63,460 nucleotides of DNA, filler included, from 8 parts of 8 records of this genome joined end to end with filler, not necessarily neighbours in it, one strand, 5' to 3'. Positions 1 to 63,460 are shown, counted from the first letter of the whole stretch. Program-made: numbers and translations. The notes: generated by a model not told the origin, from the sequence alone.

Positions 1-3000
1 ACAAGGTACCTGGCCCTGTGCCAGAAGAACCCCAAGGGCCTCCGCGGGATGCTCCACTGGCTCATCCACGTGCCCCGCCCGACCGGCAGACCTAACCGGC
101 TGGCAGGCCGTCGAGGCCAGCTGCCGGCCCGGCTGCGTGGTGTACGCGGCCCGGCCGATGCCAGGCGCCCCCGGCGGGCTCGCGCCGCTCCTCTACCCGA
201 TCCGGCTGTGGCTGTCGGAGCGGCAGCCCGAGGAGCCGGCGGTGCAGATAGACGCTGGCGCGAGACAGAGCTGGCTGGACGGTGGGTGGCCGGCTGGGCT
301 GGGCGAGCGCGATGCAGGGCTCGAGCATGGGTCTGAACTCGAGGCCGTTTACTCTACAGGCGACTGGTACCCGGCGGTCCTCACCGATGTGACGCACGAC
401 CTGGAGACATGCGCGGCCCAGTACACGGTGCAGTGGGTGGACGGTCCGCCCTGCCGGCCGCAGGGGCCCAGCAGGCGGCTCCAGGTGACCCGAACGACAC
501 CAGCAAGACCAGCGAGCAGATCCGGCCGGTGGGGTCCGGTCCGTTGGGGACAGACAAAGTGGGCCGCGACGGGCCGCCGCCCGGCACGGTGGAGATACTG
601 GTGGACCCGCTGCTGCCTGTGTCGGCGCTCCAGCAGCACCTGCTCCGGAGGTGGCTGATCAGCCCGCAGCGCCAATCGGGGGGGTAGGTGCGCGGTGAGC
701 AGTCCTGGGTACACTGGGTGGGCCGAGCAACTCACCGGCTGCTGGGTCGAGATCGAGCTGCCGGACGGCACAGCCGAGCGCCAGCTGGTGTGCGGTGTGC
801 GCTCACTCGGGCCCGGGCTCCCAATGGTGCATTGCCTGGCTGGGGACGCGCAGCACCGCCCCGGCGGAGTAGGGCCATCCAGGGCGGCGCGGGAGTTTGA
901 CGAACGAGTCAATCAAGCTGCCAAGATTGGTGTGGAGTGGCTTGCCAATCCTGCTTCAGAGCACGGGTTTGACCTGATACAGGAGCGAGTGCTGGCCGGG
1001 AGTCAATACAATGTACTTATTCCAGCAGCGTCGGCCTGCTCGGCCAAGGTCAAGCTGCAGCAGGCCATATGGAGCGCGAGCTACAGTGGTGCCTCAGTCC
1101 AAGACCTGCTGGCTGAAGCCCTCGAAGCCATCGTCAGCGGGCAGGCCCAACTCGAGACCGCCGGCCGACTCGGCGCTGCCACTCTCTGGAAGGCCCTCGG
1201 AGCCACTCAGACCAGCCAAACCGCCTGGAAGTTCAGTTCGGACGACCCTCTGGGAGGCCTCAGCTCGCTGGTCAGCGACGCAGTGGCCAGCTGCTCGACC
1301 AGCGTTGCGGCCCCAGCCGCTGAGCCGGCTGCCGATGAGCCGTCGCCATACCGGTGGACAGTGGCAGTGGTGTGCCCGGGAGGAGTGCCAGCAGATCTGT
1401 TCCTGGCTGAAGTGGTTCCAATGCTCTCGCAGATACTGGGGAACAACCTTCGGAGCACCCCCGAGCAGCTAGGCTGGCAGAATGGCTGGGAGGAGATGAT
1501 CGCATCCGTGCAGATCGGAGTTCCAGAAACCACGATGGGCACTGTGGCCCGGGCACAGACCCACGAGGAGGCGCTCAGTGTGCAAGCCGCCATAAGCGTG
1601 TGCATGACTCAGCTGTGGGAAGACGACAGGTTCTCGGAGCTGAGAGCAAAGCAGGTCCAGCAGCAGACTGCTAACCAGCTCAAGCCGGGCGTCCGAGTAA
1701 GGATTCCGGAGCTGGGACAGGACGGCACAGTGCTGCTGCTGGGACAGGAGCAGGCCGACTGTACAGTGAGTGTGGTGACCGACACGGGGCTGTTCTTGCC
1801 AGAGCTGCCGGAGTCATCTCTCCAGTCCGACGGCGGACGGGTGCAGAACCTCGGGCAGGCACCTCTGCACCCGCTCTCGCCCAATGGGCCCAAGCCGTCG
1901 CTGCTCAGCCGCAAGTTGAGTGCTTTCGAGCGGGATCCTTCCAAGCCGTCTGTCAACGTGCAGATGGAGGTCGCAGATGCTGAGTCGACGGGAGAGTTCC
2001 AAGAGGGCAACATGTATCGGGCAGTGCCTGAGCCCAGACTGGAGCTGCACTTCAGCCACGGGAAGGACCCTTACTCGCGGCAGAGCGATCAGATGTGCGT
2101 GTAGGTTTGTTGATTGGGCTTAGCTGTGACTCGCAGGTGTGTGTTCGAACTTCTCGCCCGGACAAGGCTGCCTAACAGCTTCTGGGGTCCTCCAGGTGCT
2201 GCCCGACCAAGCCCCATACAAGGCGCTGACTGTGGTCGCAGTGCGCGCAGAGTACTCCGTTGCACTCCCTGGGGAGGCCCCTGCTGCAGCCCAATTCGAC
2301 ATATCTAGCTGCGTTGGCTCAACAGCAAAGCTGGCTGAAGCCGCTATTCCATTCAAGGCACAAGAGGTGGACTCGGAGCTGAGCTTCGAACGGGCCTGCC
2401 ATCGCCGTGGCTGGGACTTGTCTAGGGTGTTAAGAGAATTGGACGCAAGCCGTCAGCCCTCGCCTGGTCTCAACTGGGGCGTGCTGCTGCGGCTGGCGAG
2501 GCAGAAGGGAGGCTATCCGATCAAGAGACTCTCTACCCGGCACTCTCAGCTATCGAGACAAGCTACTTCAATTGACGCCGCAGATGCAACTGAGGGGGTC
2601 CCAGAGGAGGTAACAATTAGCAAACAGATGGTGCGACTTGAGGCGCTGCTGTGCAGGCAATGCTGGCGCTGGATTCAATCAACATCTTGCGCAGGAAGGT
2701 GCAGGCTATGCCTGGCCTGCTGAGTAAGATGCCCAAAGACGCTTGGATTTCCAAGGTTCCTAGCCATTCTGGATTCAGGATCTGACCTCTGCTGCGCAGG
2801 GGCTCGAAGAAAAGATGCAGGAGCAGATCGCGGATACGCTGTCAATGGCCACTAACGCGCTGCCAGACTGGTTTGTGACTCTCCCCCGACTTGCTCCGTT
2901 TCTCTTCCCGCTGTCGACTCGTTTGATTCAGTTCCGCAGCATGGCGTTCGGCATGTCGCACAGCCTGTGGTGGATGCAGGAGGAGCTAATCAGGCAGCAA

Positions 3001-5148
3001 TTTGGCCCGCAGATGAAAGAGGCGCGGCAGCGCATGACTGATGCTCAGAGACAGAATCAAGACAACCAGCATCTGGTCTACGCCACCAGCATTGAGCTCA
3101 AATTTGCTGAAGCCATGGCGCCTCACCTGAAAACAAAGGCTGATCTTGAGACCCAGTTGGCAGCACGGCAGAGCGGCTCGGCGTACAAAGTGATGTGTGC
3201 CACAGGTGTCAACGTTCGAGTGGCTCCAAATCTGTCAGCCAACAAGGCCGGAAAGAAGCTCCAACAAGGGGAAATTGTGCCGACAACTGGCGACCTTTCG
3301 AAAGATCTCGAGTGGGTCAAGCTGGCCGAGCGTGATGGGCGCACTGGGCTGTGGGCCCGGCACCGGAAGAACACGACTCGGTTCATGGAACTAATGTCAG
3401 GCAAGTCTGGAGAGTCAATGGATACAATTACCCATCGTTTGGAACAATTAGAGACTACAATACAACAAGTGCTCAAGGACTTCGAGTCCAAGTATCCCGA
3501 TTTCTCGTTTGCTACAATGGAGCTGACAGAGAGCGCTTTGACAGAGACGCGGGGTCGACTGAGCAGTTACACTGGAAAGATTCAGCAGCTAGCGATGCGT
3601 GAAGCTGAGGCATGGCAGCCTATTTGGGACCTAGAAGAGCAGGTGATTCGGTGCCTTGCTACTAGTGCTGACCCAGGTGTGTTGCAGGAGGCAGCTGTGC
3701 GGCTTGGGCACAAGCAGTTGAAGTCAGACACAGTTACAGTGGACCGGGAGGCTATACTCGAAACGGCCACTCAGCTGATGACTCAGCGCACTGGCTCCAC
3801 ACATCGGCTCGAAATCAAGTATCTAAATGAGAATGCCTTTGGCAATGGCATTACCCAGTCATTTTACACTGAAGTGGCCACGGCGCTGCAGAGCAGGAAC
3901 CGATTCAGCCAGCTCTGGGGACCAGATCTTGGGAAATCGACCTCCGAGGGGCTTCTATGCCCGAATGGGTTCTTCCCCCGGCCAACAACAACACCTAGCG
4001 CCGAGACCTGTAGCGTATTCCACATGCTTGGGCAGCTGATGGCAACTGCCACCCGAGATGGGTTTGTGGTTCCCTTACATATCTCTCCATACTTCTTTGC
4101 ACTTGTGACGGGCAAAGTGCACGATCTTGACTCCGTCAGCAAAAAGATGGGCGCCCTCCGCTGCTTGGGCCCTATTGGAGAGCGATACAGCGCATTATGG
4201 CGCCTTTGTCTCCGTGTACCAAAGCCCAAAACGCCAGCCGAGGTCGAACAGCTCGCAAACACTGAATTCTGGAAAACCTATCTCAACCCAGAAGCAGAGT
4301 TTGAGTATTCTCTGCTCGACTTCCTCGACGAGATGGAAGATCGAGACCCACTGACCAACCAGCTATTGTGGCCTGTAGGCGACCCTCTGGATCCCATCAA
4401 CAGGCGACTTTTAGCACTTCTTAGCTCAGCTGACCTCTCGGGTTGGCAGGGCAGCCCAGATACACGATACCATCCCACACATCTGCAACCACTGGCTTGG
4501 CGAAGCGGTACAGCCACAAGTGTGTGCGTTCCGAGCTGGTATAGACACTGTCTTCTCTGTGGACTGGGTGAGACCGTCGCGCGCTAGCTCCTGAGGCTGG
4601 GTTCCCAGATGGCTAGCTTCACGACTGCCGAGCTCAAAGACCTGCTGTGCGGCGAGGAGCGGGTGCTGTGGGACAAGAACAGCCTGGCCAAGCATTTGCT
4701 TCCAGCCGGCGGGTAGCCCTTCTGTTCTGAAGCAGTGCTGACTGGGTGTCATAGCTACTCGAAAAGTTCGAAATCATTCAAGTGGATATGCCAGGCGACG
4801 CCTCCTGCTCCCCAGGACTAACCTGTTCTGCCAGATTTTGAATGGCATGAGCCACGAAGAGCGTCGCCAGTTCTTGGACTTCGCAACTGCCATGCCGATG
4901 CTACCCCCGGATGGGCTGCCTGGCCTGAATCTTGAAATTTCCAAGCCATCTCACCGAAAGAATAGGCGTGTACTGCAGCCTGAGCTTGTATCTGAGGGAA
5001 AGACAGGACCGACTGCCTCCCAACGGCCATGACCTGTGCACCCAAACTCTTTCTGCCTGAGTACGAGTCCAAAGAGCAGATGGCCACTCGCATAGAGGTC
5101 GCTATGCTAAATGCTTCAGGGTTTGACGACAGAGTGAGTCCCGTCTAG
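1..5148 (+). CDS. HECT E3 ubiquitin ligase (TRIP12/UPL3-UPL4-like), 5' truncated, about 12 short introns
   Basis: HECT N-lobe motifs LPRLAPFLFPLSTR and LEIKYLNENAFGNGITQSFYTEVA. After splicing introns (e.g. 4404-4449, 4795-4834, 4966-5006) the C-lobe reads ERRQFLDFATAMPMLP...LPTAMTCAPKLFLPEYESKE, with catalytic Cys TGT at 5035-5037 and stop TAG at 5146-5148. Confidence 0.9.
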
Positions 5149-5399: not shown

Positions 5400-5499
5400 N
5401 NNNNNNNNNNNNNNNNNNNNNNNNNNNNNNNNNNNNNNNNNNNTTAATTAATTAANNNNNNNNNNNNNNNNNNNNNNNNNNNNNNNNNNNNNNNNNNNN
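5400..5499. other. Artificial contig spacer (N44-TTAATTAATTAA-N44)
   Basis: Identical 100-nt linker with stops in all six frames, recurring at 9096-9195, 13333-13432, 23029-23128, 27089-27188, 32530-32629 and 58605-58704. Confidence 0.99.
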
Positions 5500-8400
5500 T
5501 GGTGAGCTGGCTGGCCGTGGAGGTAGTCGAGCTGCTCGAGCTCGAAGGCCGGCCGGAGCTGGTCCAGCTGGTGGGCACTGAGCTCTGCCAGATGCTGATT
5601 GCGGTCGGTCGGAGCTGCGAGATCGGGCTGCACACGCTGACGGTGGTCATGCGTGGAATAGTCTTCCTGGCAAGCAAGCACCGCGCGTTGCTCGATCAGC
5701 AGCTGGCGCTGCTGCTCATCCACATCCCGCTCAGGTTGATCGAGTCGAGCGCCGCCCCGGCCGAGCACAGGGTGCTTGGGTTGGAGTGTCTGAGCTCTCT
5801 CATCCAGATAGGGCCTCTGATGCCGGAGCTGTTCATTAACCACGACTGCTGCCAGACCAGCATCCACTCGCTGCACGACACCATCCTGGGCAGCCTCCAG
5901 AAGGGCGTCTATCCGGTGCCCCCATTCCCCTCCCCAGGATCAGCTGAGCCTTCCCGGCAGCTCGGGGCTCGGGTGGAACCAATCCACGCCGCCGCTTTGC
6001 ATGGGCTGGTGGCAGTTCTCCAGGCCTCGGCTACCCGGTTGGCTAGCGGCAGCCAGGGTGATCCAGAGCTGGAGGCCGAGCTGGCCGAGTCGCGCCGGCT
6101 CAAGCTGGAGAGCCGGGCCGGAGCCAGTGTGTTCAATGCGGCTCCCAAAAAGGCGAGTCCCGAGCCAGGCGAGGCAGGCTTGAGCCAGGGAGCAGGGACT
6201 GAAGCAGCTGCCGACTTTGTGGCCTTTGGATGAGGAGAAGGCGGCCAAGTTCCTGTCGCGGAATGTCTTTATTGAAAAGAAAGCGCTCGGCGAGTTCTTT
6301 GGGTCGCAATACGAGATCGTGACCGAGCAGACAGATGCAGACCCCAAAAAGTTTGCGCTGCGCACACTCAAGGCGTTCATAGCTAACTTTGACTGGACTG
6401 GCGAGACATTTGATCGGGCTCTGCGGGAGCTGCTGCACGCCTTTAGGCTGCCGGGTGAATCTCAAATGATTGACCGGATCATGGAGGCGTTCGCAGCCCA
6501 TTATTTCGGATGCAACCCGACTGCGTTTGACTGTGCGGACACTGGGTACACTCTAGCGTTCTCGCTGATGATGCTCAACACTGATCTTTACAATCCGAGC
6601 GTCAAGAACAAGATGAGCTGTCAGGATTTCATCAGGATGAATCGCGGGATTGGTGCTCAGGGCGCCGACGTGGATCCCGATTACCTCTCGATGCTCTACT
6701 CCTCAATTAAGAAGAACGAGATACGGATGGTGTCAGAGCAGTTGCCGGAGCATCTGGGCAGCTTTGAATGGGCCGAGCTCACCAGCTCCAGCCAGCAGTA
6801 CCAAAAGGTCGACCAGCGCTGGGGGAGCCGGCTCGAGAGCCTGATGCTAGAGTCTAGCTGGTCAGGCACGGTAGCCGCGCTCTCTGTGGTGCTCGAGGCA
6901 GACGAGGTCGAGGAGCTCGATGTAGGGGTGGCAGCTCGGGGGCTGCAGCTCTGTTGCCAACTGGCTGGCCAGCTGAATCAGCCTCAGGTGCTTGAGAGCG
7001 TCATCGCACTCTATGCTAAAAAGCTGAGCCCACTCGCCCTGGAGACAGTTTCAGGGCAACAGATGGACGCGGCACTGGCTACTGATAATGCTCTGAGAGC
7101 TGTGGTCCTTGGGCTGTTTCAGGCTGCCCATGAGCATGGCCAGCTGTTTACCGGCCCGTGTTGGACCCAGCTGGTGGAGCAGGCCTGCGGGCTCAATAGA
7201 TATGGCCTGGTGGTGCCGCACAACAGTCTGTGCGAGCCGCAGGGTTCCGAGCAGCCCAGCTCACCCAGGACAATCGCGGACTCATCTGGGACTGGGTCTT
7301 GGAGCGATCTGTTTGGCGAGTCTGCCGAGAAGCAGGCGGCCAACCAGCATCGGACAGCTGCACTGGAGCTGGTTGCAACGTCTGGGCTGCTCCAGCTGTT
7401 TGCCAATGACTCCCAGTTTTTGTCTCTCGAGTCGCTTGGCATGCTTGTCTCTTCGCTGCACGCGGGTTGCAGTCCGAGTGGTGCAGCCAGCCCGAGTGGT
7501 GCAGCTAGCACTTGTCTCTGCCTGCATCTGCTTGTCGAGCTGGCGCTGCACAATCGAGATCGCTGGCACACAGTCTGGCCTCCGCTGCAGGCGGCAATCC
7601 GGGAGCTCTTGGAGCAGGAGTCCAAGCAGGTCCGGTCCAGGGCCACTGCAGCACTCATGCGGCTTTGCTCGAGGCTGGCGCATAAAGCTGAGATCTCGAC
7701 TGTGCTATTCGAGGAGGTGGGCGACTTATTTGTGCGGCCAAATGACGCAAGCCCAGAGCCGAACGCGCAGGCCGCTCAAACCGAGCTTCTCGAGTGTGTC
7801 GGGCCGCAGCTGGCGGTGGGTGTGCTTTTGGTCATTCAGAACAACTTGTTGCACATTCAGAGGTCTCAGCATGCGTGGGACACCACTATTGCGCTGATAG
7901 GCACAGTCGCGCAGGGCCCGGAGGCGGCGATTGCGCTGTCCGCGCTCGAGCATGTGGTGCTCCACAGCCGTCCATTCACCGAGGTTGTCCTGCAGCAGTG
8001 CCTTGCAGTCCTTCGCCGAATGTTGCTCGGGCCATCTGTAGGCGGCCAGACTCAGAATGCGGCACTCCTCCTTCTGCTGACGATCCAGCATCAGCTGTGT
8101 CTCCAGCAGGCCGCCCAAGACCCCTCGTGCTGGCCTGTGCTCGGAAGAGACGTGACGATGCTTCTGAGCGAGATTTGCTGCTGCAGTTCGATCTCTGATG
8201 GGTTGAGCGTGGATGCACTCGGTGGTCTGCTCGAGTTGCTAAGCTTGGGCTCCCGAGAGCCACTCAGAGTCAGTGGGTCTGAGTGGCTCTGGCTGCTTCA
8301 GAAAGTGCTCTTTCCTACACTTCATCAGCTTCAGGTGATCCCAGCCTTCCCCGCTTCCCTCACCAATAGGCAGGCATCCGAGCCTAGAGCGCCCAACTGC

Positions 8401-9049
8401 CGAATCGCGGCTGGGATCACGGCATTCCAAGCCTCGATGGCCACCGCGCTGCCAGCCGTTGTCCACGGTGACAAGTTCGAACAGCTTTGGCGCTCAAGCC
8501 TGGTGTTGCTCGGCGGGTTTTCGCGGCTGAGCGAGCCGCTAGTGGCAGAGGTGGCCAGCGAGCTGTGAGCCGGCTGATCGGCGGTCCAGGTGCGACATGT
8601 GCTCGAGCAGCTGCTCTCGACCGCCGCACAGCTGCTGGCGCCGCGCTCCAACTTCCGCGACTCCGACATCTGGGCCGAGACTGTAGAGGCGAGCTGGCTC
8701 TGCGCTCGCCAATCTTGACGCATGGCGGCAGGTGGCATTGGCCTCGTTTGCCTCTGAGCTTGAGCTCTCGGAGGAAGTGCTGGATGGAATGATTGGGCTG
8801 GGCGATTTGGACTTGCTCGAGCCAACCCAGAGCCCGTCGACCGAGCCCAAACTAGTCGCAGCAGAACCACCTGCTGCGCCTGAAGTACAAACGGACACCA
8901 CTTTTGACAAATTGGACACGAACCGTGACGGCGCGATTGACCGTGCCGAGTTTGAGGCCGGGCTCAAGGCCGGGATCGTTGCAGCAACGCCGCCGCCGTT
9001 CGCGCCGTTGTTAGACGAAGTAGAGAATCTGGAGAGCGATCTCACGTAA
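5500..9049 (+). CDS. Large Sec7-domain ARF guanine nucleotide exchange factor (GBF1/GNOM-like), 5' truncated, with a C-terminal EF-hand-like motif
   Basis: Sec7 glutamate finger FRLPGESQMIDRIMEAFA and LAFSLMMLNTDLYN; upstream HUS-box-like ELFINHDC; downstream HDS-like LALHNRDRWHTVW. Introns include GC-AG 6153-6195 and 8689-8731. Stop TAA ends at 9049. Confidence 0.9.
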
Positions 9050-9298
9050 ACTATTAAATCTAACTACAAGTGCTAATATATACTCGTGAGCCGGCNNNNN
9101 NNNNNNNNNNNNNNNNNNNNNNNNNNNNNNNNNNNNNNNTTAATTAATTAANNNNNNNNNNNNNNNNNNNNNNNNNNNNNNNNNNNNNNNNNNNNCGAAT
9201 AAAGGCAACTTACGATGCGATAACAACTGTCCTTTGTGTAGAATTGTCTACTAAAATCCTCAGAGAATAGAGAATGGTTTGGACAGCCACGCAGTGAG

Positions 9299-11158
9299 AT
9301 GGAGCGCTTCCTGAGCCAACTGTCGGGAGACAGCGGTCTGGACACCCCGCCTCCGCCAGCTGGGTCGGGGTTCGCCACCCGGCTGACCCCGTTCAAAGAC
9401 CACCCCGAGAAGCAGGAGACCTCCATAGACAAGACCATCCTCTCGCCCACGACAGGCCTGCACAGCCCCGGTGGGCTCCCGGCTCACCGCCGAGAGCCAG
9501 GCGAGACGCTCCCGAGCACGATGAGCACCACCGACTACCAGATCGACCCAATGACCGCCGAGCCCAGCTCGGTGCCCCGCTGCCGCCGGCCGGCCGGACC
9601 CTGCGGCCGCAGTTGAACGAGACGCGTGCGCTGGTGGAGGCACTCCGGCAACGGACATGGGCCAGCCCGGGCAGAGCAGTGGGGGCAGGGAGCACTCGGT
9701 GATGATCGAGCGGGACAGGGCCCAGCTGGCGCTGCTGCTGGGGGAGACAAACGCCAAGAACAGCGCACTGCATGAGAAAGTGGCCGCGCGGGTGGGGTGG
9801 GCCAAGCGGCTGCGGGCAGGTGTCCTCGATCAGCCACAAGCTGGAGACGGCACGGCAGGAGAAGAACGCGCTGGTGGACATCACCACCAAGCTGGAGGAC
9901 TTGATGTGGGAGCAGGCACTGCCGTCGGCTGGCCGGGCCTGAACCAGCACAGGGCAGCGAGCATCAGGCCGAGATGGCCAACATGGAAAAGGCCTACGAC
10001 GAAGTCCTCCGGGTCAAGATCAAGGAGGTGCCCACCGGCCGCTGGCCCGGCTACTCAGCCCGGGACAGGCGCGGGAAGAGGGTGTCAAGTTGGGAATAGC
10101 CCAGCAAGCCGGACTGATGCCAGAGGTGCTCGGCGGCCGTGCCACTACTGAGTCTGTGCCCCGCAGAGCCCGGAGCAGGCCGGGGGCTCTCCTGGGTGCG
10201 GGGCAGGCCGGGCAGGGCGAGCTATGGTAGGTCGGGTGATCATAAGAGCGGAGGGCTGTTCGGGGATTTATTTTCGTTTGGGGGCTCAGACAGCGGTGCG
10301 GCCGCGGCCGGCTGGGTCGAGGCGGGTCAGGCGAGCTCAAGATTTTACGAGAGAAGCTTGAGGCGCTGCAGGCGAGCGTGGATGCGGTGCGCGGGCGGCT
10401 GACGGGGGTCAGGGTGAAAATTTATGCAAAGACGAGGAGATTAGGAGCTTTTCGACAGATCGAGAGTACTACGAAGGGCAGATCGCCCAGGCAGGCCGGC
10501 CTGGTGGTTCCCGTTACAATTGGGACAGGAGAAGGCCGAGGTTGATCAGGCCAGGCAGAAGCTGAGCCACCTCACTCAAGAGATGGATGAGTACCGTAAC
10601 GGGCATTATTGCAAACAGCAAGAGAAGGAAGTCCGAGAGGTCATAGAAGAGGCCGCGCCGGTCTGAGCCAGTGCCTCAGCACAACCGGATCCAGAGCTAC
10701 GTTAAGAAGCACATGTTCCATCTGTTTAAGAGCTGTGGCCAGGAGAGAGTGCGTGAATACATGAAAGAGGTCGCCCCGGTCAGCTTTGGTTCGTGATCAA
10801 TTCCATCAGGTGTTCGCCGGAAACTGGAAATGCTCCCCACCGATGGAGCTGAACAAGGCTTCTGGCTCGCAGCAACCAGTAGAGAAGAGCCTCCAGGCAC
10901 TTGCTTGGCCCTTGGGCCCGCTCTTAAGAGTCGAGTGTGCAGAAGGAGATTTCGGTGCTAGTGAAGCGGTGTACTGCTCTAGAGGGCCAGAACGCCGAGA
11001 AGGACGAGGAAGTGGTGGCGATGGAAAAGGAGCTGAGATACACGGAGAAGGAGCTGGCCAAGGAGCGGAAGCGGGTGAAGCGAGCCGAGGAGCTACTGTT
11101 GAGCATGTCTTCGAAGAAGGAGAAGAACCAGAGCGTGTGGAAGAAGTTGGTCAGTTAG
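9299..11158 (+). CDS. Multi-exon coiled-coil protein of unknown function
   Basis: ATG at 9299; successive E/K-rich helical exons separated by ~40-nt G(T/C)...AG introns; last exon ...EKELRYTEKELAKERKRVKRAEELL...KKLVS then TAG. Several internal junctions are ambiguous. Confidence 0.6.
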
Positions 11159-11556: not shown

Positions 11557-13230
11557 CTAGAGCAAGGTACTGTTGCGTTTGATGCGCGATGCAGGCCACT
11601 CTCCTAGCCACTGCCACCCGTCTATGACCACCATTGATTTGACCTCAAATGTCAACAAATTGTCCAGTCCACCCGAGATCAGTCCGGCCTCTGCGACTGC
11701 CTCGGCTGGATGGAGCGCCTGGCATATATTCAATGCGCCTCGGAGGACCCTGCCCTTTATGTCGCGGTCGAGCGCAGCTTCGCAACGGAAACTGGGCGAG
11801 TGGTTCACCTCCAGGAGCCACGGGTTTAAGTGCTCGTCGATCAACATATCAAATCCGAGAACTTCAAAACACCGACAAGGTGCGCCGGTCGCCTCATGTG
11901 GCACACATCGGCGATATGTGTTGCACAGCTCTAAATGAGCTGAGAGAAGAGTATGGGCTGCCAGCCCAGCCATCGATGCCCAAAGTTCTGCTGAGTCGCA
12001 CTTGGTGGTCTCTGCTAGCCATTGCATCAGCCACCTCACACTGCGTTTATTGCCCTCTGCGCCCTCTGTCCCGTCAGTGTGGTCGTAGTCAGCATGCGTT
12101 TTGTTGACTGCATAGTTTGTCAGATGCACACACGAGTTGGAGAGATTGCCACTGCATGGTACCTCATAAGGCTCCGCGCATATCCTGACCAATCCGTCGT
12201 GAAAGAACCACAGCCGCAGCGGGTCGACGTGACTCACGAGCAAGTAAAGCCTGACATCAAACTTGCACCCGTCAATAAGCAGAGGATTTCCAATGTAACT
12301 CTGCGCCACTCCCTTCCGCCGCAGCAAACTCCGGGGTGGCATCCCGCGGCACAACACAATCCCCTTGCCCTGCGAGCCAGTATTCGGCTTCACAATCAGC
12401 GTCCTGTTCGTATCCGCTTGGCACCACCGTTCCAGCCTCACAGATTCTTTAGGGAGCAGCCAGGTCATCGGCGTCCGCATCAGCTCGTGCGGCTCACAGG
12501 CCTCATTCCACTGACGTGCCCTCTTGGCCAGCGACTGCTTGCGGCAAATGCTCAGCATGCCAGCAAAGTGGTTCACCTGCTGCCCATGGTCCAGCCTCAT
12601 CACCACCCCCTCCCCCACACTGCTGTCCTGCCAGGTCACGTCCGGCTTATCCCGGCTCTTCTCCCGGCTGGAGCGCACGTCGAGCGGCTGGAACACGTCG
12701 ACGTACCCTACAGCCCGAGCACTGCTCCGCACAGCGTCATAGTTGCACTTGGCGGTGCAGATCCTCAGCCGACGCCGGGAGCTCTGGCGGACCACCGCTA
12801 TCCCTTGGTCCAGCTTGTGTGGGAGCGAGTGCCGCCTGGGGCCTAAGTTGCCCGGTCTTGGCTGGTCCACCCGGGGCAGCGGCAGCACGCTGGTGGGGGA
12901 CGGGGTGGCTGATTTGGTCTTCTTGGCCCTCCGGTGTGGGCTGACAAAGGGGAGGGGGTGCGGCTCCGGGCCGCTGAGAGAGATCGGGGCCGGGGCGGCC
13001 GGGGGCGGCCGGGTGGCCTTGCCGAGCAGGTTTGCGGCCTTGCCGCCGTGCCAGGCCGAAGCCTCCAGCGCGGCGATGATGGCGGTGCGCGCGAGGGTAG
13101 GGAAGCGGAGGATGAGGTTGGTCAGTATCTGGTCGCGAGGGAGGCAGTTCCTGCAGTCCATTATGGTGGCCGGCCGCTCCGGTAGCGGGTGGGCTAGCGG
13201 CTCCAGGGCCGTGCCCTTCAATGCATGCAT
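11557..13230 (-). CDS. Tubulin-tyrosine ligase-like polyglutamylase (TTLL6/7/13-like) with an N-terminal CUE-like domain
   Basis: TTL motifs VNHFAGMLSICRK, IVKPNTGSQGKGI, QSYIGNPLLIDGCKFDVRLY, HLTNYAVNK and CFEVLGFDMLIDEHLNPWLLEVNHSPSF. Exact start and 3' end are uncertain. Confidence 0.9.
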   Translation of the reverse strand: MHALKGTALEPLAHPLPERPATIMDCRNCLPRDQILTNLILRFPTLARTAIIAALEASAWHGGKAANLLGKATRPPPAAPAPISLSGPEPHPLPFVSPHRRAKKTKSATPSPTSVLPLPRVDQPRPGNLGPRRHSLPHKLDQGIAVVRQSSRRRLRICTAKCNYDAVRSSARAVGYVDVFQPLDVRSSREKSRDKPDVTWQDSSVGEGVVMRLDHGQQVNHFAGMLSICRKQSLAKRARQWNEACEPHELMRTPMTWLLPKESVRLERWCQADTNRTLIVKPNTGSQGKGIVLCRGMPPRSLLRRKGVAQSYIGNPLLIDGCKFDVRLYLLVSHVDPLRLWFFHDGLVRICAEPYEVPCSGNLSNSCVHLTNYAVNKTHADYDHTDGTEGAEGNKRSVRWLMQWLAETTKCDSAELWASMAGLAAHTLLSAHLELCNTYRRCVPHEATGAPCRCFEVLGFDMLIDEHLNPWLLEVNHSPSFRCEAALDRDIKGRVLRGALNICQALHPAEAVAEAGLISGGLDNLLTFEVKSMVVIDGWQWLGEWPASRIKRNSTLL

Positions 13231-14084
13231 GATTATGTACGGCTATAGCCCTTTCCATGGCCGGGACCCCATGCAGGGAGGAATGTGCCGACTTTGGCCT
13301 GTCAGGTTCGGATGAGTTTCTGGGTGGTTGATNNNNNNNNNNNNNNNNNNNNNNNNNNNNNNNNNNNNNNNNNNNNTTAATTAATTAANNNNNNNNNNNN
13401 NNNNNNNNNNNNNNNNNNNNNNNNNNNNNNNNCGCCGTGGCGTGCATATACCTAGACCGGTCGGGACTGGAATCCAGTGGGTGCCGGTGTCGCGAGCCAC
13501 CTGCTGCCGCTGATCGAGCGGCCGGCAGGGCCACGGCCCGGCGGCGCCCCCGAGTCAGGCGGGGCGGGGTCAGGGCTGCCTCCGGAGCGGAACGTCTCAT
13601 GTCCCATCCGGGAATGGGGCCCTCATCTTTACCATCGCCCCCATCGCCCATCGCGTTGGGTGCCTGCCGGACGGTCAGTCAAGCGGCCGCAGCGGGGATT
13701 GTTCGCTATAGGCGCGTACAAGGAGGAGAGCGATGCCGAGGAGTGCGAGCTAGCCTGCGGCAAGTGGCAAGGCCAATGGTACCTACGAGTGAGCGCTTTA
13801 ATAATTAAGAAGCACTCTAGATACTCGTACACGAGTATCATTAGTTACATACCAGTTACAGGACTTGCCGTGGTCTAAGTGCTTGATTGACCACTTGAGT
13901 TCATCGGAGTTAATTCTTACTGTAAGCTTACATGATTGTACTTCTGAATAAATACGGAGATCAGACCCTCGTCTTCACTTATGGTAAGTCAATGGCTTCT
14001 AATCGTTTAATCACAAGCCGTCACCTAGTCCAAACTCGTCCATGGCTGGAGCAAGCTTGCGAGGCTCTAGCTAGGCTCGAATTC

Positions 14085-15725
14085 TCACGGGCCCGATTGC
14101 AACAGCTCCGCCACCTGTCCCCGGGCTGGCACGCGAGCAGCCGACCGCGCACCTTCCGTAATTCCACTTGCTCAGCGTACTCGTCCGCATCCACTGCCAG
14201 CCAGCTCAGCCGATAGCTGCAGACCGCCGCGCCTTCCTCTGCGCTATCATTGTCCGAGTCGGCGTTTGGCTCGGGCTCTGGGCCACCAATCAACACCTCG
14301 CCCTTGGCTGCGCGCTCAATCTCGCTCTGGTTATTTAGATCCTGCTCGAATTGCCGCATCGAGTCGGCTTTGAGCTGCTCCATCTCGGCCGCCTGGCCCG
14401 GATAGTTTGGGCTCAGCCAGGCCAAGGGCACCTTGGCCGCTTTCCGCTGTTCCAGATCAGGCCTATAGTTCTGCCAATCCAGTTAGAGATGCTGTGTGTA
14501 AAGCACACCTTGGCGTACTCTGCCGCTGCCTGGTCAATCGCCACAAACAAAGAGTCCATCCCGGCGCCTGCACAGACTCAGCCGGCCCCCGGCCCGGCCA
14601 GCCACCGGACACGGCCGACAGCCCAACAGCCTTGAGCGTCTCATAGAACTCATCCAGAACCTATACAGGCCCAGCAGTCGGCTGGCAGCCGAATAGCGCG
14701 GCGCACCAGGCTCTGAGAGTGGCACAGGTCGCTTAAATACGATGTCTCGGTCTGGAGTGCGTCCTGTCCGCCGGCTCAGGGGCGGGGATGCTGTTGGGAT
14801 TGCTTGGAACGCCTCGCAGTCGGTCATCCAGCTGAGGCAAGTCTCGTGAGACACCACATCGATCTTATTGAACACGAGCACCATCGGCAGCTTCATTTTG
14901 TACATGATGCTGGCCCGGGCTCAGGCCTAGACTCTGGGGCCACGGCTCGCCTGCATGCGTATAGCATGTTGCTCATAAAAGTGATTGCGGACTGGCAGCT
15001 GCCCGGCCTCCCAGCTGCCCAGCCCGGCCGCCGCACCGGCACGTGTCCACCACGTACAGCAGCACTGTAGGGAACGAGGAGGCAAGCAGCTCCGTCACGA
15101 TCGCGCCTGGCGCTGCTCAGCTCGAGAGCCCAGCCACCCACCGGAGGCCGACCAGGTGAAGATTTCTATCTGGCCGGGCGTGTCCACTAGAATGTGCCTG
15201 CCACAGCTCAGGCCGGCTGCGGGCGGGGCCGGCGGGCACTCGAGCTCGCCTTTGGCCGCCCGGCTCTCGGCGAACTTTAGAACTTGATCGAACCTGCGGC
15301 CGGCTAGCCGCCGGGCGCCGGGGCCGGGCGCCTGGTTGCAAAGAGATTGAGCGAGGTGAGGATCCCGCCGTTGGGTCCCAGCGAGTACCTGCCCGGGTTG
15401 GGGGTCGGCCGGCCCGGGCCGCACTGTTTCATAACTTGCTTGTAGTTGACTGTGTCCCTGATGTCGATGCTCGCGTTGAACGGGACCTGCCGGACGGCTC
15501 GGGACGCAGGGCACGGCCGGCTGCCTCCAGCACGGCTGGGTCTAGGTTGATCATGTAAGACTTGTCGCCGTGCGCGTGCGAGTACGAGTCCAGGGCCTGA
15601 GGCGGCTCAGCCGAGCCCGGGGGGGCGCCCGCCTGCATCAGGGTGGTCTTGCCGCTGCCGGCCATCCCGATCACGATGCACGCCACCGGACTCGCCCCGC
15701 CGCCCGGTTCAGCCGTCGCAGCCAT
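14085..15725 (-). CDS. GPN1: GPN-loop GTPase 1, about 15 short introns
   Basis: Spliced translation gives [10 protein letters not shown] (P-loop), [36 protein letters not shown] (GPN loop), [36 protein letters not shown] and FNKID. The acidic tail and stop are less certain. Confidence 0.93.
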
Positions 15726-15877
15726 CAGGTTTCGGCGGGGCGGCACAGTGCCAGCTTCCGCGCGAACCCAGCTGATCCGTTACTGACAGCTGTCGCGCGG
15801 CGCTCGAGACAGGCCCACTCGCGACTACTCGGTCGACCGGCTGCAAGTGTAGCACCGACACAGACCGCTGGGCCGAG

Positions 15878-18800: not shown

Positions 18801-18907
18801 GCGGCGAGGACGCCAGGACCACGGCGTTCCACAAGGCCAGCGCCGCCAAGTTCCCGCTCTCTACCTACTTCAATCCAGCCGAACCGGGGGCGGCATCGGA
18901 GGCGTAG
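15878..18907 (+). CDS. NAA15: N-terminal acetyltransferase A auxiliary subunit (NAA15/NAA16/Nat1), multi-exon
   Basis: [85 protein letters not shown] and C-terminal FPLSTYF; stop TAG ends at 18907. Confidence 0.95.
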
Positions 18908-19227
18908 AACGCGGCTTGAGGATGGCGAGCGTGAGGGCACGCAGTGGCTGGTGCGACTCGCTAGCTACTCACGCCGGGTGTCTTTATGTGGTCTCGACTA
19001 GTCTCGACCAGCCGGATCATGTTCAAGATTCAAATGCGAATAATAAACTAAATCGTAATGTAAGTACTTACTCCAACCCCACCCGTGTGTGCCCACGTGC
19101 TCGTGCTGCTACATACATGTGCCGGTGCATGCACTAACCGGTCTAACCCCCCTCTCCTACGTGTACCTGGTACTGTAGACTCTAGATCTACGTGTACATC
19201 TAATCTGCGCCAGTTGCCAATTTAACG

Positions 19228-20906: not shown

Positions 20907-21175
20907 TCACAATCAAAGATAATAAAAGCGATTTATGAAAAACAACAGTAACATTTGTATTAACTAATCTAAAAGTTCTCACCGCCCAAGATCCCCAAGT
21001 GATAAGTGCTCAGTGATTGCTCGCGAGGTACGGAGCTGGCAGGCATGGAAGGTACACTATAGTGCTTGCGCAGCAGGCAGTACATCTGTAGAACAACGCA
21101 CTTATCACTGGCTCACGCATCGGTTGGCACGAAGGCTGCTCTGTGACGACCAAGCTCGCGTGCGAAGAAGGTTAC

Positions 21176-37234: not shown

Positions 37235-37242
37235 TAATCAAC

Positions 37243-45744: not shown

Positions 45745-45816
45745 TGCCCTGGCAGCTGCAGCTGTAACTGCAAATCGGGGATCTCTGAGACCTCTCCCGG
45801 CTCACTCGACTGCATC

Positions 45817-58599: not shown

Positions 58600-59131
58600 G
58601 AGGANNNNNNNNNNNNNNNNNNNNNNNNNNNNNNNNNNNNNNNNNNNNTTAATTAATTAANNNNNNNNNNNNNNNNNNNNNNNNNNNNNNNNNNNNNNNN
58701 NNNNAAGAGATGCACGGTGGCACATTGCCGGAAGAGCAACGCCCTAGATCTAGTACGATAGTTTAGTCTAGTCCCAACTTAGTCCAAGCCAATTATAACT
58801 TACTTTAAAGATTGAAACTTTCAAGCTACAAAACTAGTACGTACAACCTCCGGAATAATATTTGCCGGCAACCAAAATTAATTAAATCGGCCGGTTCAAA
58901 GGGCTGCACCAGTCAGGGCTGTCGGGCGCGCTGCTCGAGGGTACGTAGAGGGTACGGTAGCTCGAGCGCAAGGCGGTGGTGGCGCTCTTCTTCGAATTCG
59001 GCTACTCTCGGTCGTCTCGGTAGTCGGGGCTGTGGCTGTGGCTACGTGCCTCGGTGCCTGTGGTACCTGTACTTAAAATACCTGGCAAGATTTCAGACCT
59101 TACCCCAAAGTAACGGAAATTTTACTCCACC

Positions 59132-60690: not shown

Positions 60691-62443
60691 TCAATCATTT
60701 TGGAACTGCTCGCGCAACACATTTGAGAGCGCTGATCGCACAGAAGCATACTCTGGTTGCAAGGCCAAGTTGACATTCTCAAACGCGTCAAAGTCGTCAC
60801 CTCGGTCTTGCCTATGATCATACAGCTCAGCAGCATGCAGACTGGCCCAGTCCACCGCTCCGACCGACTTGTTATACCGCTTCCACTCGGTATACCGCCA
60901 CTCATCGCTGCGGACCGAGAACCCCATGAAGTCCGCTGCTTGAGGCCCCTGTGGGTGACAAAACATGCACACGTCCCATGGTTCCGTCTGCCCGTGGAAG
61001 CTTGATATCCGCTTTGCAAATTGCGAGAAGGCATATTGGTTCGGACCAGGCCCACCCTGGATGGCACTCACAAGGCTAGCACCCTGGACCGGCGTTTCGG
61101 CCTCAGGAAGCGATATGCCGGCCAGCTCTGATAGCGTCCTGTACAGGTCGACAGCTTCAGCAAACGCGTCTGTGCGGAGTCCAGCTGAGCGTTGGAGCCA
61201 GGGCACACGCAGTATGAACGGGACCCGAACAGCCAGCTCGAAGTTCGTCATCTTGGCCCACAGGTTATGCTCTCCAACTTGCTGCCCGTGGTCGCCAATG
61301 AAGCTCACAACGGTCGAATCCTCCAGCCCGAGAGCTCGCAGCTCTTCGAGCACTCGGCCTATCTGGGCGTCCACGTACGACATTGTCGCGTAGAGCCCTC
61401 GCCGGGCCCTTAGCGCCAGAGTGCGATTCATTGGCTGGTCGATTGTGGTGCCTGCGTACGGGTGCCAGGCGACGGCCGGCATCCCGGTCGGCACTGTCGG
61501 GTGCTCCGGGCCCGCAATCTGCTCTGCAGGCGGATACAGATCAAAGTACTCACTTGGGGCTACCCACGGCAGGTGCGGCCGGTGAAACCCAGCCGCCAGG
61601 AAGAAAGGCCGGCCCGTGGCATTGCGTTGCCTCGCAGCATACTGTAATCTCTCAATGGCCAGGCTGGCCTCAGCCTGATCCCAGAGCGGCCGGTCGAGTT
61701 TGCTCATGTTGAGTGAGCACCAGTTACTATCTCCGTCGATCCGGGCCTCGAGCGGGCAGTCCTCAATTCCGTAGGAGCAGCTCACGGTGCTGTTATCGCA
61801 CGGCATGCGGTCGCTGGTCGTGTTGGGCCAGGCTGGCTTATGACCAGCGAACGGACCCCCACCAAACACGTACGGCAGCTCAGTCGACCACGAATGCGGG
61901 TAGTCAAACTGCCACGGGTCGCCGGGGTGGAACTGCACACCACACGTCTCAGGCCGGCAGGCACCCTGCTGGCTCACTGTCTTGCCGTTGCCCAGCGTCA
62001 AGTATCCTTGCCGCCGGAAGTTGCCCGGCAGCGTGGTCCAGTTCGCCCCAGCGCCTGGTACAGTGCACTGCTCGCCGCTGCCCGGCTGCCCGCGCCCCTC
62101 TCGGCAGCGGAAGTTGTCCTGTCCAGGCTCACCCCTGTCGCAGCACGGGGGGCGCCAGGAAGTTCCAGACGCGGGTGCGATCCGGTCGCCGCCCGGTCAT
62201 GAACGAGTTGCGCGAGGGTGCACAGAATGCGTATTGCACATAGGCCCGGTTGAACAGGGTTCCAGTGCTGGCCAGCCGGTCCAGGCTCGGGGTGTGCATG
62301 AACGGGTGCCCGTAGCAGCCCAGCTGCGGTCGCATGTCGTCGGCGATCAGAAACAGCACGTTAGGACGAGCTGGCCGCCCGGCAGAGACGGCGCTCGAGC
62401 CAGCCAGCAGCAGACAGCAGACCCCGATCTCTGCTCTTCGCAT
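60691..62443 (-). CDS. Secreted formylglycine-dependent sulfatase (iduronate-2-sulfatase-like), 2 introns
   Basis: Signal peptide; RPNVLFLIADDMRP; CAPSRNSFMTGRRPD (CxPxR); GKT-FHP after splicing; PFFLAAGFHRPHLPW; GDHGQQVGEHNLWAK. GC-AG intron at 62119-62155. Confidence 0.92.
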
Positions 62444-62478
62444 GCTCGGTCCGGCGGATCCGTTACTTCGCGCTCGAC

Positions 62479-63460
62479 ATGGTGGCTGCGAGCGCGAAGG
62501 CCTTTGAGCGGTGCTGTGGGCAGGACGACTGGGCCAAGCTGCTGGCCGGGGAGGATCTGGACGACGACGAGAGCGACGGCAGCTGGGACGAGCAAGAGGA
62601 GGAGGAGATCCCGCCGCTCCCGCTCCACGACGCCGCCGAGGCACCGGGCGCCGCCCGAGCCCCGCTGACCGGCAGCCGACAGAACGGCGACTTGGACCGT
62701 CTGCGGGCGCTGCTCAACCCGCCGGAGGGGCCGGACGACTCGGCCGAGCCGGCGGCCCAGCCCGGGCCGCCGCAGGTGGTCGGGATGGAGGTCGAGTTGC
62801 GCGACCCGATGTGGAACATGACGCCGCTGCACACGGCGCTGCTCCACCGGCAGCTGGGCGCGATGGCGCTGCTGCTCGAGGCCGGGGCCACTGCCACCGC
62901 CTCGTGCGAGGGCCTCAAGCCGGTGCACATGGCGCTCCGGATGTCTGGCTTCCCGGAGTGCGAACAGTTCAGCCTCGACGCCACCCGGCTGCTCCTGAAG
63001 CACGGGGCCAGCGTGCGGCCTCCAGGCCGGGCCCGGGCCGACCGGACGACAGGTGCGCAGCTCCGACGACGAGGGCCGGAGCGCTGTGCACGTGGCGGCC
63101 AGCCTGGGGCTGGTGGGGCTGCTTCCCGAATTGCTCGGGGCGGAGCCGGCAGTCGGGCTGGCGGCCACCGACCACGAGGGGGACACTCCGCTGCACGCGG
63201 CAGCCAGTAGCCGGGCGGCCGGGCTGGAGACTGTCTCGCTGCTTCTGGAGCTCAAAGCGGATCCGGCAGCTCGCAACACGGAGGGCCGAACCGCGCTCCA
63301 CCTGGCAGCAGTCACCGGTGGCAGAGCCGCTGTGCTCGAGAGGTGCGGCCGGCCGGGTCTGCTGGCCGAGCCGGCGGGTGCCAGGCTGATGAAAGCGGCC
63401 CCTGAGATGGCAGCGCAGGCCGACTGCTTCGGTGCGGCCGGCGCTGTGCTGGCGGTGACA
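62479..63460 (+). CDS. Ankyrin-repeat protein, multi-exon, 3' truncated
   Basis: LPLHDAAE, NMTPLHTALL, GLKPVHMAL, GRSAVHVAASLG, GDTPLHAA and GRTALHLAA in successive frames separated by ~40-nt introns. Confidence 0.8.

Follow-up and report, generated by a model that had tools for sequence, protein, structure and literature searches.

Uniformly short introns with frequent GC-AG donors in contigs of a G+C-rich marine eukaryote

The introns in eight contigs (60% G+C) of a marine eukaryote are tiny, nearly uniform in length and rich in GC-AG donors. The window that we analysed is a 63,460-nt stretch of DNA in which these contigs are joined by linkers of the form N44-TTAATTAATTAA-N44. An initial annotation had described introns mostly of 36–47 nt, with GC donors making up a quarter to a third, and we confirm this observation: the 24 introns that we could verify by RNA or homology measure 35–47 nt (median 40), and GC donors begin 8 of these 24 and 26 of the 109 introns in a broader catalogue. 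RNA joints show that the GC donors are genuinely used, and they are frequent. We assign a probability of about 0.7 to the reading that they are ordinary spliceosomal introns of the U2 type, held at a near-minimal and near-constant length of 35–47 nt in a marine protist whose genome is G+C-rich and has many introns. They are removed from RNA, use both GT and GC donors and a CAG acceptor, lack a polypyrimidine tract and contain a CTGAGC-like box; length and this 3' module plausibly carry much of intron definition.

Results

Verified introns and the intron catalogue

Our RNA source was metatranscriptome contigs aligned to contig 4 only and covering it in part; a lack of cover elsewhere does not speak against an intron. 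Among the 15 joints listed of 19, nine were short (36–47 nt), in records with 0–1 mismatches to the window, and six skipped 66–689 nt with sides of 20–27 letters; five of these six were set aside as probable foreign or repeat matches. Each of the nine short joints has a single G[TC]..AG placement, five being GT-AG and four GC-AG without an equivalent GT placement. For homology, the aligner was permitted intron sizes of 25–150 nt, and chosen boundaries were ranked against alternatives with any dinucleotide (139–306 per intron in NAA15). The verified set comprises 12 introns in NAA15 (2 GC), 11 in the core of GPN1 (5 GC) and 1, with a GC donor, in a Sec7 gene; all 24 have G at +1, T or C at +2 and a 3' AG. 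A first metagenome scan yielded no genomic relatives, and a profile scan yielded 175 relatives, of which 80 were kept and only two were close (72% identity, 2.6-kb transcript-like records).

We also applied a gene finder. A version using codon usage alone and a flat intron penalty called too many introns (52 GC, 32 GT) and lost RNA-backed boundaries, and a decoy test of coding potential failed to single out GC (gain 47 for GC, 59 for TG, 45 for GA and 38 for AG). Base-level placement of boundaries is beyond coding potential, and we replaced it by a signal model, trained on the verified introns, that permits GT, GC, GA and GG and is neutral at donor +2. This model picked 81 GT, 27 GC, 3 GG and 1 GA introns; decoys at +2 are therefore rare compared with GC (3 + 1 versus 27). 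It also recovered, with no preference for C at +2, all nine GC-AG introns that the initial annotation had listed.

The catalogue (n=109) was selected by this model from its scoring of length, branch box and flanks, and this selection dictates in part how narrow its lengths and how frequent its motifs are; only the 24 verified introns are free of that bias. Two entries were edited: one GC call was changed to an RNA-backed GT intron, and the intron at 62119–62155 was added from an earlier iteration. Genes scoring below 30 were excluded, at 32632–33255 and 39384–41271 (the latter with four predicted introns: 2 GT, 1 GC, 1 GG). Two predicted introns, 10331–10371 and 10372–10412, follow each other directly without an intervening exon, surely an error of the model, and the contig-3 gene model is weak. 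Intron density is 2.5 per kb of coding sequence and reaches 14 per kb.

Could the GC calls be an artefact of hand or model placement, with nearby GT donors truly used? Coding potential alone cannot place boundaries, the RNA-backed GT intron 15953–15999 was called by the gene finder as a GC intron at 15959–15999, and for the GC intron at 20716–20759 a GT-AG alternative is equally good. Against this stand the four GC-AG joints in RNA, the rarity of decoys, and the alternatives themselves: 8 of the 26 catalogued GC introns have no GT-AG alternative and 17 have a clearly worse one, so that 20716–20759 is the sole exception among 26. We consider an artefact extremely unlikely overall, and for contig 4 it is largely refuted.

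The NAA15 and GPN1 genes

The gene for NAA15, the NatA auxiliary subunit (15878–18907, + strand; Pfam NatA_aux_su, E=2e-135), was resolved by spliced alignment to four homologues of 60–73% identity and contains 12 introns, 2 of them GC-AG. Its best matches are environmental and transcriptome proteins at this same 60–73%, and named relatives, mostly land plants, reach at most 41% identity among the top 120 matches; the organism thus seems to have no close kin among named genomes, Emiliania among them.

For 9 of the 12 introns, the boundary that the alignment chose has the top rank. Three GT-AG introns combine an RNA joint with a first rank: 15953–15999 (47 nt; joint in X1; 1/306), 16079–16120 (42 nt; X1; 1/282) and 18440–18483 (44 nt; X3; 1/186). 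At 16201–16239 (GT-AG, 39 nt, 1/265), the sixth long joint is consistent with the intron: the X2 record skips 66 nt with 27 other letters between, a net loss of 39. Homology also places first the GT-AG introns 16360–16400 (41 nt, 1/284), 16617–16656 (40 nt, 1/286), 17122–17161 (40 nt, 1/285) and 18597–18636 (40 nt, 1/139), and the GC-AG intron 16478–16519 (42 nt, 1/286), which belongs to the nine listed earlier and has no GT-AG alternative. Lower ranks were obtained for the GT-AG introns 16786–16825 (40 nt, 4/197) and 17241–17278 (38 nt, 5/269). The latter and 17122–17161 lie hidden within an open frame of 554 codons (16823–18484) that reads through both. For the second GC-AG intron, 18710–18748 (39 nt), homology is uninformative (rank 63/269) and the evidence is a joint in X1 with a side of 72; both spliced (X1) and unspliced forms occur, X2 record 13 being ungapped over 18636–18772.

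The GPN1-type GTPase gene (14085–15725, - strand) is the most densely interrupted: its 1059-nt coding sequence is split by 15 predicted introns (14.2 per kb), taken from spliced alignment to P0167, P0158 and P0168 together with the gene finder. The earlier count of about 6 GC introns among 15 holds, as 6 of the 15 predicted introns are GC-AG and 5 of these 6 belong to the 11 that are verified; the remaining four introns, below 14568, come solely from the gene model. The GC-AG intron 15597–15632 (36 nt, rank 1/251), one of those listed earlier, has a joint in X1, X2 and X3 (three runs, two studies) with a sole G[TC]..AG placement. Joints also support the GC-AG introns 15487–15524 (38 nt; X2, side 63; 1/270) and 15294–15331 (38 nt; X1, side 54; 1/269) and the GT-AG intron 15389–15424 (36 nt; X2, side only 26; 1/249). 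At 15198–15239 (GT-AG, 42 nt) a joint in X1 decides, homology alone having slightly favoured a 48-nt GC variant (330 versus 314).

The other six rest on homology. First ranks went to 15107–15141 (GT-AG, 35 nt, 1/227), 14661–14706 (GT-AG, 46 nt, 1/184) and 14910–14950 (GC-AG, 41 nt, 1/263), whose canonical-like alternatives are all GC too. The GC-AG intron 14764–14803 (40 nt) ranks 3/269 and has no GT alternative, and 14568–14605 (GT-AG, 38 nt) ranks 9/252 in a weakly conserved region. At 14999–15036 (GT-AG, 38 nt) we took the best-scoring boundary (379) in place of the aligner's own choice, which ranked 18th; with it, eight boundaries of the GPN1 core score highest, seven of them chosen by the aligner itself.

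Introns of other genes

In the Sec7 domain of a GBF1/GNOM-like gene, the GC-AG intron 6153–6195 (43 nt, + strand, among those listed earlier) ranks 1/292 against eight homologues, the nearest GT-AG boundary scoring 272 versus 337, and the Sec7 profile begins at position 31 in the downstream exon. A spliced alignment of this whole gene to homologues of 26–34% identity gave inconsistent, gap-filling 'introns', and only this local test was retained. Homologues of a UCH gene (two matches, 24–25% identity) were useless as boundary evidence.

Profiles of HECT, Methyltransf_31, Hsp70, UCH and PDZ_3 continue across further introns. The HECT profile runs through positions 222–261 before and 266–304 after the GC-AG intron 4966–5006 (41 nt, + strand), for which GT alternatives are at least 13 nats worse; the first residue of the exon after the predicted GC-AG intron 4795–4834 (40 nt, +) is HECT profile position 222, and the GT alternative there is worse by 8.5 nats in the gene-finder model. 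In a HECT-type ligase gene, a frame change in the sequence accompanies the gene finder's GC-AG intron 4404–4449 (46 nt, +). For this intron and the predicted GC-AG intron 23507–23547 (41 nt, +), no frame-compatible, stop-free GT-AG alternative exists within 24 nt. The GT-AG intron 23730–23772 (43 nt, +) is bounded exactly by Methyltransf_31, positions 2–37 ending at the last residue of one exon and 38–124 starting at the first residue of the next. Two further GC-AG predictions are 8689–8731 (43 nt, +), whose single GT alternative is worse by 12.4 nats, and 62119–62155 (37 nt, - strand) in an iduronate-2-sulfatase-like gene, whose GT alternative of 28 nt is 13.5 nats worse, both in the gene-finder model. 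Against 5fql_A, the exon upstream of the latter aligns to its second-last residue and the downstream exon only from residue 25. All of these introns except 23730–23772 had been listed in the initial annotation.

An Hsp70-like gene on contig 7 (37243–38748, - strand) has eight predicted introns, all GT-AG. The Hsp70 profile is continuous across 38425–38463, 37968–38004, 37857–37895 and 37728–37764, and roughly so across 37525–37566.

Splice signals

The donor had been summarised as G(T/C) followed by a purine. Those positions stand (+3 is G or A, and +4 mostly C or A), but the summary understates the context: in the catalogue G occupies -1 in 84–92% of donors, and GC donors also have A at -2 in 88% and C at -3 in 69%. 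The resulting GC context, CAG/GCRA, is stronger than that of GT donors, whose consensus G/GTGCSS departs markedly from the classical U1 target over +4 to +6. Scored against the classical CAG/GURAGU, GC donors match at 4.62 of the 7 other positions versus 3.42 for GT donors in the catalogue (Mann-Whitney p=5e-6) and 4.62 versus 3.62 in the verified subset (p=0.04). A at -2 is present in 8/8 verified GC donors versus 7/16 GT donors (Fisher p=0.0095). Neither length nor composition sets GC introns apart from GT introns.

At the 3' end, the described absence of a polypyrimidine tract and the CAG-type ending are borne out: pyrimidines make up 0.44–0.49 of the last 15 nt of these G+C-rich introns, and intron position -3 is C in 103 of 109 catalogued introns. 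The reported CTGA box is real as well. Of the 24 verified introns, 11 contain CTGA[CG] at 8–26 nt from their 3' end, compared with 0.44 on average and 4 at most over 500 shuffles, and the fuller motif is a CTGAGC-like box with an invariant A, about 11–14 nt upstream of the 3' end. Its enrichment suggests that the box is branch-like and may be the branch site. The best branch-like heptamer carries 5.1 bits versus 2.3 in shuffled controls; the donor carries about 6.2 bits (-3 to +8) and the acceptor 7.2. In 87 of 109 introns there is no AG between box and acceptor.

The initial annotation had gone on to propose relaxed recognition of +2, with introns defined largely by length and branch point. 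The second part is plausible, given the near-constant length, the enriched box and the missing pyrimidine tract; the first is not supported as stated, given the flanks of GC donors. In its full form the proposal would be that a change in U1C, in U6 or at the 5' end of U1 has left the lineage's spliceosome unable to discriminate at +2, so that T and C are interchangeable and introns are defined by length and branch point alone. The GC share in the verified set, a donor of only about 6 bits and the poor fit of GTGCSS to the U1 target would agree with this. Equivalence of T and C does not, however, predict the better flanks that GC donors need, a 26-kb contig with the same intron style has no GC donor at all, and Aureococcus and Micromonas pusilla have 22–40% GC-AG introns with a canonical U1 5' end (PMC3033335). 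Better flanks at GC donors are the usual compensation for a U1 mismatch, as one would expect with a conventional U1/U6 still reading the site and C at +2 being costly; a +2-blind spliceosome is not needed, and we think it quite improbable.

A search of the window for snRNAs gave no Rfam match at the gathering score or at E<=1. The canonical U1 snRNA 5' end is AUACUUACCUG. The poor match of GTGCSS to U1 at +4 to +6 also counts against our preferred reading, and an altered U1 5' end is conceivable.

Shared sequence among introns might instead point to copies of a mobile 'introner' family, with GC donors inherited from the element. Sharing of 8- to 12-mers does exceed shuffled controls (for example, a 10-mer in 77 pairs versus 30 expected), and Micromonas and Aureococcus, with their high published GC-AG shares, are also introner hosts. 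But this sharing comes down to the branch box and to low-complexity strings of GCCGGCC type, a 12-mer is common to only 10 of 5886 pairs, the intron listing reveals no terminal repeats or common core, and GC and GT introns are alike in length and composition. An introner origin seems to us very improbable.

A contig without GC donors

GC donors are unevenly distributed: contig 7 (32630–58604) has the same intron style and 0 of 29 catalogued introns with GC, versus 26 of 80 on the other seven contigs (Fisher p=1e-4). The branch-like box differs too, CTGA occurring in 6/29 introns versus 36/80 elsewhere and SSGAG/GTGAG in 12/29 versus 13/80. One explanation would be that the window, being made of joined contigs, mixes two close relatives binned together, GC donors being frequent in one and never used in the other; in that case the GC 'share' would describe the bin and no single genome. 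Intron length and G+C content are nevertheless alike in contig 7 and the others, tetranucleotide profiles correlate at 0.79–0.95 without setting contig 7 apart, and codon usage correlates at 0.93–0.96 within and between contig groups. On these comparisons we rejected a foreign origin of contig 7; a sister species might nonetheless show the same picture, and we hold a two-organism mixture to be unlikely, if worth keeping in mind.

GC3 of the host gene does not predict a GC donor (r=-0.09, p=0.35) and contig 7 lacks GC donors, so that G+C pressure within the window fails as an explanation, which counts against our preferred reading.

Discussion

Comparison with known systems

Compensation at GC donors is said to have been described by Kralovicova in 2011 and by Thanaraj and Clark in 2001. 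The GC 5' splice sites of mammals and plants share compensation with those studied here, where it takes the form CAG/GCRA; their share there is about 1%, and here a quarter or more.

U12-type introns have a strong branch box near the 3' end and no pyrimidine tract, and our introns resemble them in both respects. They differ at the 5' end, for which the U12 consensus is ATATCC or GTATCC-like (PMC3033335): donors here are GTGCSS or GCRA, not /RTATCC, and we rejected a U12-type assignment. Nor is there a case for a green-algal affinity: TGTAA lies within 400 nt downstream of the stop in 11 of 21 genes, not clearly above expectation for an A+T-richer UTR.

Earlier publications describe abundant GC-AG introns in Emiliania, Aureococcus and Micromonas, and the present case is similar. 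Across 61 species, the survey cited above gives 98.6% GT-AG and 1.3% GC-AG, with 39.6% GC-AG in Aureococcus anophagefferens and 22.2% in Micromonas pusilla CCMP1545, genomes of 66–70% G+C; the authors called this 'an enigma' and noted a canonical U1 5' end (PMC3033335). Later estimates, in a preprint, are 14–17% for Aureococcus and about 14% for Pelagomonas, and pelagophyte introns there average 103–177 bp at fewer than one per gene (10.1101/2024.10.30.620910), unlike the roughly 40-nt, densely spaced introns described here. The haptophyte Emiliania huxleyi is a further parallel: GC is a main donor there, in 56% of 241 hand-mapped junctions and 61–65% by RNA-seq, with an AG acceptor and frequent intron retention (PMC4028052). 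It too is a G+C-rich marine protist, and one GC intron here is both spliced and retained. However, the share here is lower (about 24–33%) and uneven between contigs, and introns here are uniformly 35–47 nt.

How these introns may be recognised

Under our preferred reading of ordinary U2-type introns, the whole intron would be recognised as a single unit. U2 would pair with the strong 3'-proximal branch box, the acceptor would be the first suitable AG downstream of it, and we infer that a conventional U1/U6 reads the rather weak donor. A GC donor lowers donor strength through a U1 mismatch at +2 (PMC7242645); C at +2 would be a tolerated mismatch, persisting mainly with well-pairing neighbours (C at -3, A at -2, G at -1, A or G at +3, A at +4). 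In a G+C-rich genome, T-to-C changes at +2 could then accumulate until, on most contigs, between one quarter and one third of all donors carry them.

It is tempting to speculate, although we think it doubtful, that the contigs come from an undescribed marine protist lineage with a minimal-intron system (35–47 nt, G+C-rich and free of a pyrimidine tract), read mainly through a CTGAGC box at a fixed distance from CAG, in which +2 is nearly free and a regional force acts on the GC share. If so, the regional variation, from none in 26 kb to a third elsewhere, would mark a force such as recombination-linked biased conversion, expression level or intron age, and nature would in effect have set up a test of the way in which +2 is read by U1 and U6.

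For the organism itself, the practical consequence is that gene callers expecting GT-AG and prokaryote-style ORF callers will misread it; a GT-only model would misplace a quarter of its introns. G+C-rich marine protists with abundant GC-AG introns are few, and the present organism, probably a member of an unsampled lineage, joins them. Here abundant GC-AG goes together with G+C-rich introns that are among the shortest and most uniform, at local densities of up to 14 per kb. The contrast between contigs offers a way to find what sets the share of GC donors, and the compensation in their flanks is an argument that no rebuilt spliceosome is required for the trait to arise.

Composition of the window

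The 63,460-base window comprises eight contigs linked by N44-TTAATTAATTAA-N44, a six-frame stop spacer (5400–5499, 9096–9195, 13333–13432, 23029–23128, 27089–27188, 32530–32629 and 58605–58704), so gene adjacency across these points is meaningless. The contigs are 56–67% G+C. Of 923 open frames, the 150 longest were searched against Pfam, revealing eukaryotic genes: a GBF1/GNOM-like Sec7 exchange factor, a tubulin-tyrosine-ligase-like protein, a GPN-loop GTPase, NAA15, a UCH protease, an Hsp70-like protein, and RCC1, ankyrin, DegP/PDZ and sulfatase genes, with the C-terminus of a HECT ligase recognized exon by exon. One open frame (19204–20919, +) joins a LigB-type extradiol ring-cleavage dioxygenase to an O-methyltransferase domain, an unusual pairing.

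Introns fixed by RNA

Metatranscriptome contigs were matched to contig 4 only (13433–23028, an N-free stretch), 6–8% of whose sampled words are present in three marine runs from two studies. There are at least 15 joints, gaps at which an RNA record skips window letters, and nine of the 15 listed skip 36–47 nt. For each short joint we tried every equivalent cut placement; in all nine cases a single placement reads G[TC]..AG on one strand. Four are GC-AG, at 15294–15331, 15487–15524 and 15597–15632 on the minus strand, the last seen in all three runs, and at 18710–18748 on the plus strand. The five GT-AG joints lie at 15198–15239 and 15389–15424 on the minus strand, the latter with only 26 letters on its shorter side, and at 15953–15999, 16079–16120 and 18440–18483 on the plus strand. 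The joint-carrying records differ from the window by 0–1 letters, which indicates that they derive from the window's organism or a near-identical population.

The remaining six listed joints skip 66–689 nt, with 20–27 letters on the shorter side, and five of them were excluded. The 66-nt joint contains 27 unmatched letters, a net loss of 39 nt that equals the length of intron 16201–16239. The GC-AG intron 18710–18748 is spliced in one run (X1), and one record of a second run (X2) is ungapped from 18636 to 18772 and hence retains it, which adds 39 nt and leaves the reading frame intact. This unspliced record appears to represent either intron retention or an intermediate of splicing.

Introns fixed by homology

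The closest relatives of NAA15 are unnamed environmental and transcriptome proteins (60–73% identity); named NAA15 proteins reach at most 41% among the best 120 matches. Using a purpose-written protein-to-DNA aligner with intron states of 25–150 nt, we obtained the same 11 introns with four homologues, only the last intron being variable, which makes 12 introns in total with GC donors at 16478–16519 and 18710–18748. Each boundary was then scored against the homologues together with all frame-keeping, stop-free pairs up to 15 nt away, whatever their dinucleotides. The G[TC]-AG boundary ranked first in nine of the 12 introns (139–306 alternatives each) and fourth and fifth in two more. In 18710–18748 it ranked 63rd by homology; the protein is unconserved there and the RNA joint is decisive. 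A 554-codon open frame (16823–18484) runs straight through introns 17122–17161 and 17241–17278 (78 nt together), and the true exon between them uses a different frame. Long open frames in this G+C-rich DNA are unsafe as exon calls.

For GPN1, a 67-residue N-terminal query found 30 relatives, and three longer ones fixed 11 introns in the conserved core, including all five that are backed by RNA. Five of the 11 are GC introns, namely the three RNA-backed ones plus 14910–14950 and 14764–14803. At 15198–15239 homology slightly favoured a GC variant (330 vs 314) and the RNA joint is GT. In the Sec7 domain, the GC intron 6153–6195 ranked first of 292 alternatives with eight distant homologues. Taken together, RNA and homology verified 24 introns of 35–47 nt, eight of them with GC donors, which confirms the initial annotation's observation of introns of about 40 nt with abundant GC-AG donors.

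Submitting in-frame exons singly to Pfam showed profiles continuing across introns elsewhere. The HECT profile covers 222–261 and then 266–304 on either side of GC intron 4966–5006, and Methyltransf_31 reaches the last residue of one exon (2–37) and resumes at the first residue of the next (38–124) across GT intron 23730–23772. Hsp70 is continuous from exon to exon over four or five GT introns on contig 7, UCH over two and PDZ_3 over one. At 62119–62155 the upstream exon aligns to iduronate-2-sulfatase as far as its second-last residue, and the downstream exon aligns only beyond a 17-residue surplus relative to the human enzyme; support for this predicted GC intron comes mainly from the gene-finder model. 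The surplus, about 17 Gly/Pro-rich residues directly after the predicted intron (62046–62118, −), could be a true insert or an unresolved splice variant.

Window-wide intron count

A first gene finder, which relied solely on codon usage, was unable to place boundaries and failed the decoy test. We therefore turned to a second finder whose donor, acceptor, branch and length terms were trained on the 23 introns then verified. Donor +2 was left neutral, with a choice of GT, GC, GA and GG; since G and C are equally common in this DNA, GG serves as a fair decoy for GC. Across three penalties it called 61–83 GT, 27–34 GC, 2–4 GA and 3 GG introns and recovered 21–22 of the 23 training introns. Two rounds of retraining gave 81 GT, 27 GC, 1 GA and 3 GG, or 63, 18, 1 and 3 when the two training genes were excluded. 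The rare GA and GG choices fall 3 nt away from a GT and appear to be misplaced.

The cleaned catalogue (genes scoring at least 30) holds 109 introns: 80 GT, 26 GC, 1 GA and 2 GG. Within 24 nt, a GT-AG alternative that keeps the frame and contains no stop is missing for eight of the 26 GC introns; for 17 such an alternative exists and scores more than 3 nats lower, and one (20716–20759) is ambiguous. All nine GC-AG introns proposed in the initial annotation fall within the catalogued GC set. On contig 3, two 41-nt GC-AG introns were called directly adjoining each other, leaving no exon in between (10331–10412, +), the first resembling coiled-coil coding sequence, and the gene model (9299–11158) is thus unreliable there.

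Intron anatomy

Introns are 35–47 nt long (median 40). For catalogued introns this range is in part a product of the model; the verified set is free of this effect, and its G+C is 63–92% against about 62% in coding sequence. There is no pyrimidine tract (last 15 nt: pyrimidines 0.44–0.49, T 0.13–0.19), and C occupies acceptor position −3 in 103 of 109 introns. A branch-like box, (G)CTGAGC with an invariant A, lies mostly 11–14 nt from the intron 3′ end; CTGA[CG] is present in 11 of 24 verified introns versus 0.44 in shuffles, and the interval from box to acceptor is free of AG in 87 of 109. Avoidance of lengths divisible by three was not seen (7/24 verified, 28/109 catalogued). U12-type introns were ruled out by the wrong 5′ end, and no introner-like family was found among the introns.

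Coding sequence carries 2.5 introns per kb overall, but very unevenly, with 4.7 per kb in NAA15 and 14.2 in GPN1 (14085–15725, −), where 15 introns in 1.06 kb leave exons of about 55–105 nt. Several genes of 1.2–3 kb have 0–1 intron, as do the 1.7–3 kb genes at 11557–13230, 21176–23026 and 42865–45905 (all −).

Donor context

GT donors follow G|GTGCSS or G|GTGAG and GC donors CAG|GC(A/G)(A/C). Compared to GT donors, GC donors more often have C at −3 (69% vs 39%), A at −2 (88% vs 50%), A at +3 (35% vs 6%) and A at +4 (50% vs 20%). At the seven positions of CAG|GURAGU besides +1/+2, catalogued GC donors average 4.62 matches and GT donors 3.42 (Mann-Whitney p=5e-6), and verified donors 4.62 and 3.62 (p=0.04); A at −2 occurs in 8/8 verified GC and 7/16 verified GT donors (p=0.0095). 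Catalogue selection used one pooled donor matrix for both classes, which should blur rather than create this difference. The +2 of a GC donor is described as a mismatch with U1 (PMC7242645), and the stronger flanks are the compensation already known from GC 5′ splice sites in other organisms. The initial annotation had envisaged a spliceosome with relaxed +2 recognition that defines introns largely by length and branch point; the length and branch architecture stands, while a +2-indifferent spliceosome is neither shown nor needed.

GC donors are not predicted by the GC3 of the host gene. Their distribution is uneven: contig 7 (32630–58604; 26 kb, ~14 genes) has none among 29 catalogued introns, against 26/80 on the other contigs (Fisher p=1e-4). 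Its introns match those elsewhere in length and composition, and its GT-donor flanks are those of GT donors elsewhere. The SSGAGC/GTGAGC box occurs in 12/29 introns there vs 13/80 elsewhere, and the CTGA box in 6/29 vs 36/80. Neither tetranucleotide profiles nor codon usage separated contig 7 from the other window contigs. The contrast could reflect either regional variation within one genome or a co-binned sister genome.

Relation to known systems

High GC-AG shares in G+C-rich marine algae are already published. Reported values are 39.6% in Aureococcus and 22.2% in Micromonas pusilla, with a canonical U1 5′ end (PMC3033335), 14–17% with introns of 103–177 bp in newer pelagophyte annotations (10.1101/2024.10.30.620910), and 56–65% in Emiliania huxleyi, where intron retention is reported as frequent (PMC4028052). 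A word-matching literature search did not find a description of the combination of ~40-nt G+C-rich introns, a 3′-proximal CTGAGC box and at least a quarter GC donors, and we do not claim that it is unpublished. In practice, these introns matter chiefly for gene prediction in genomes of this kind.
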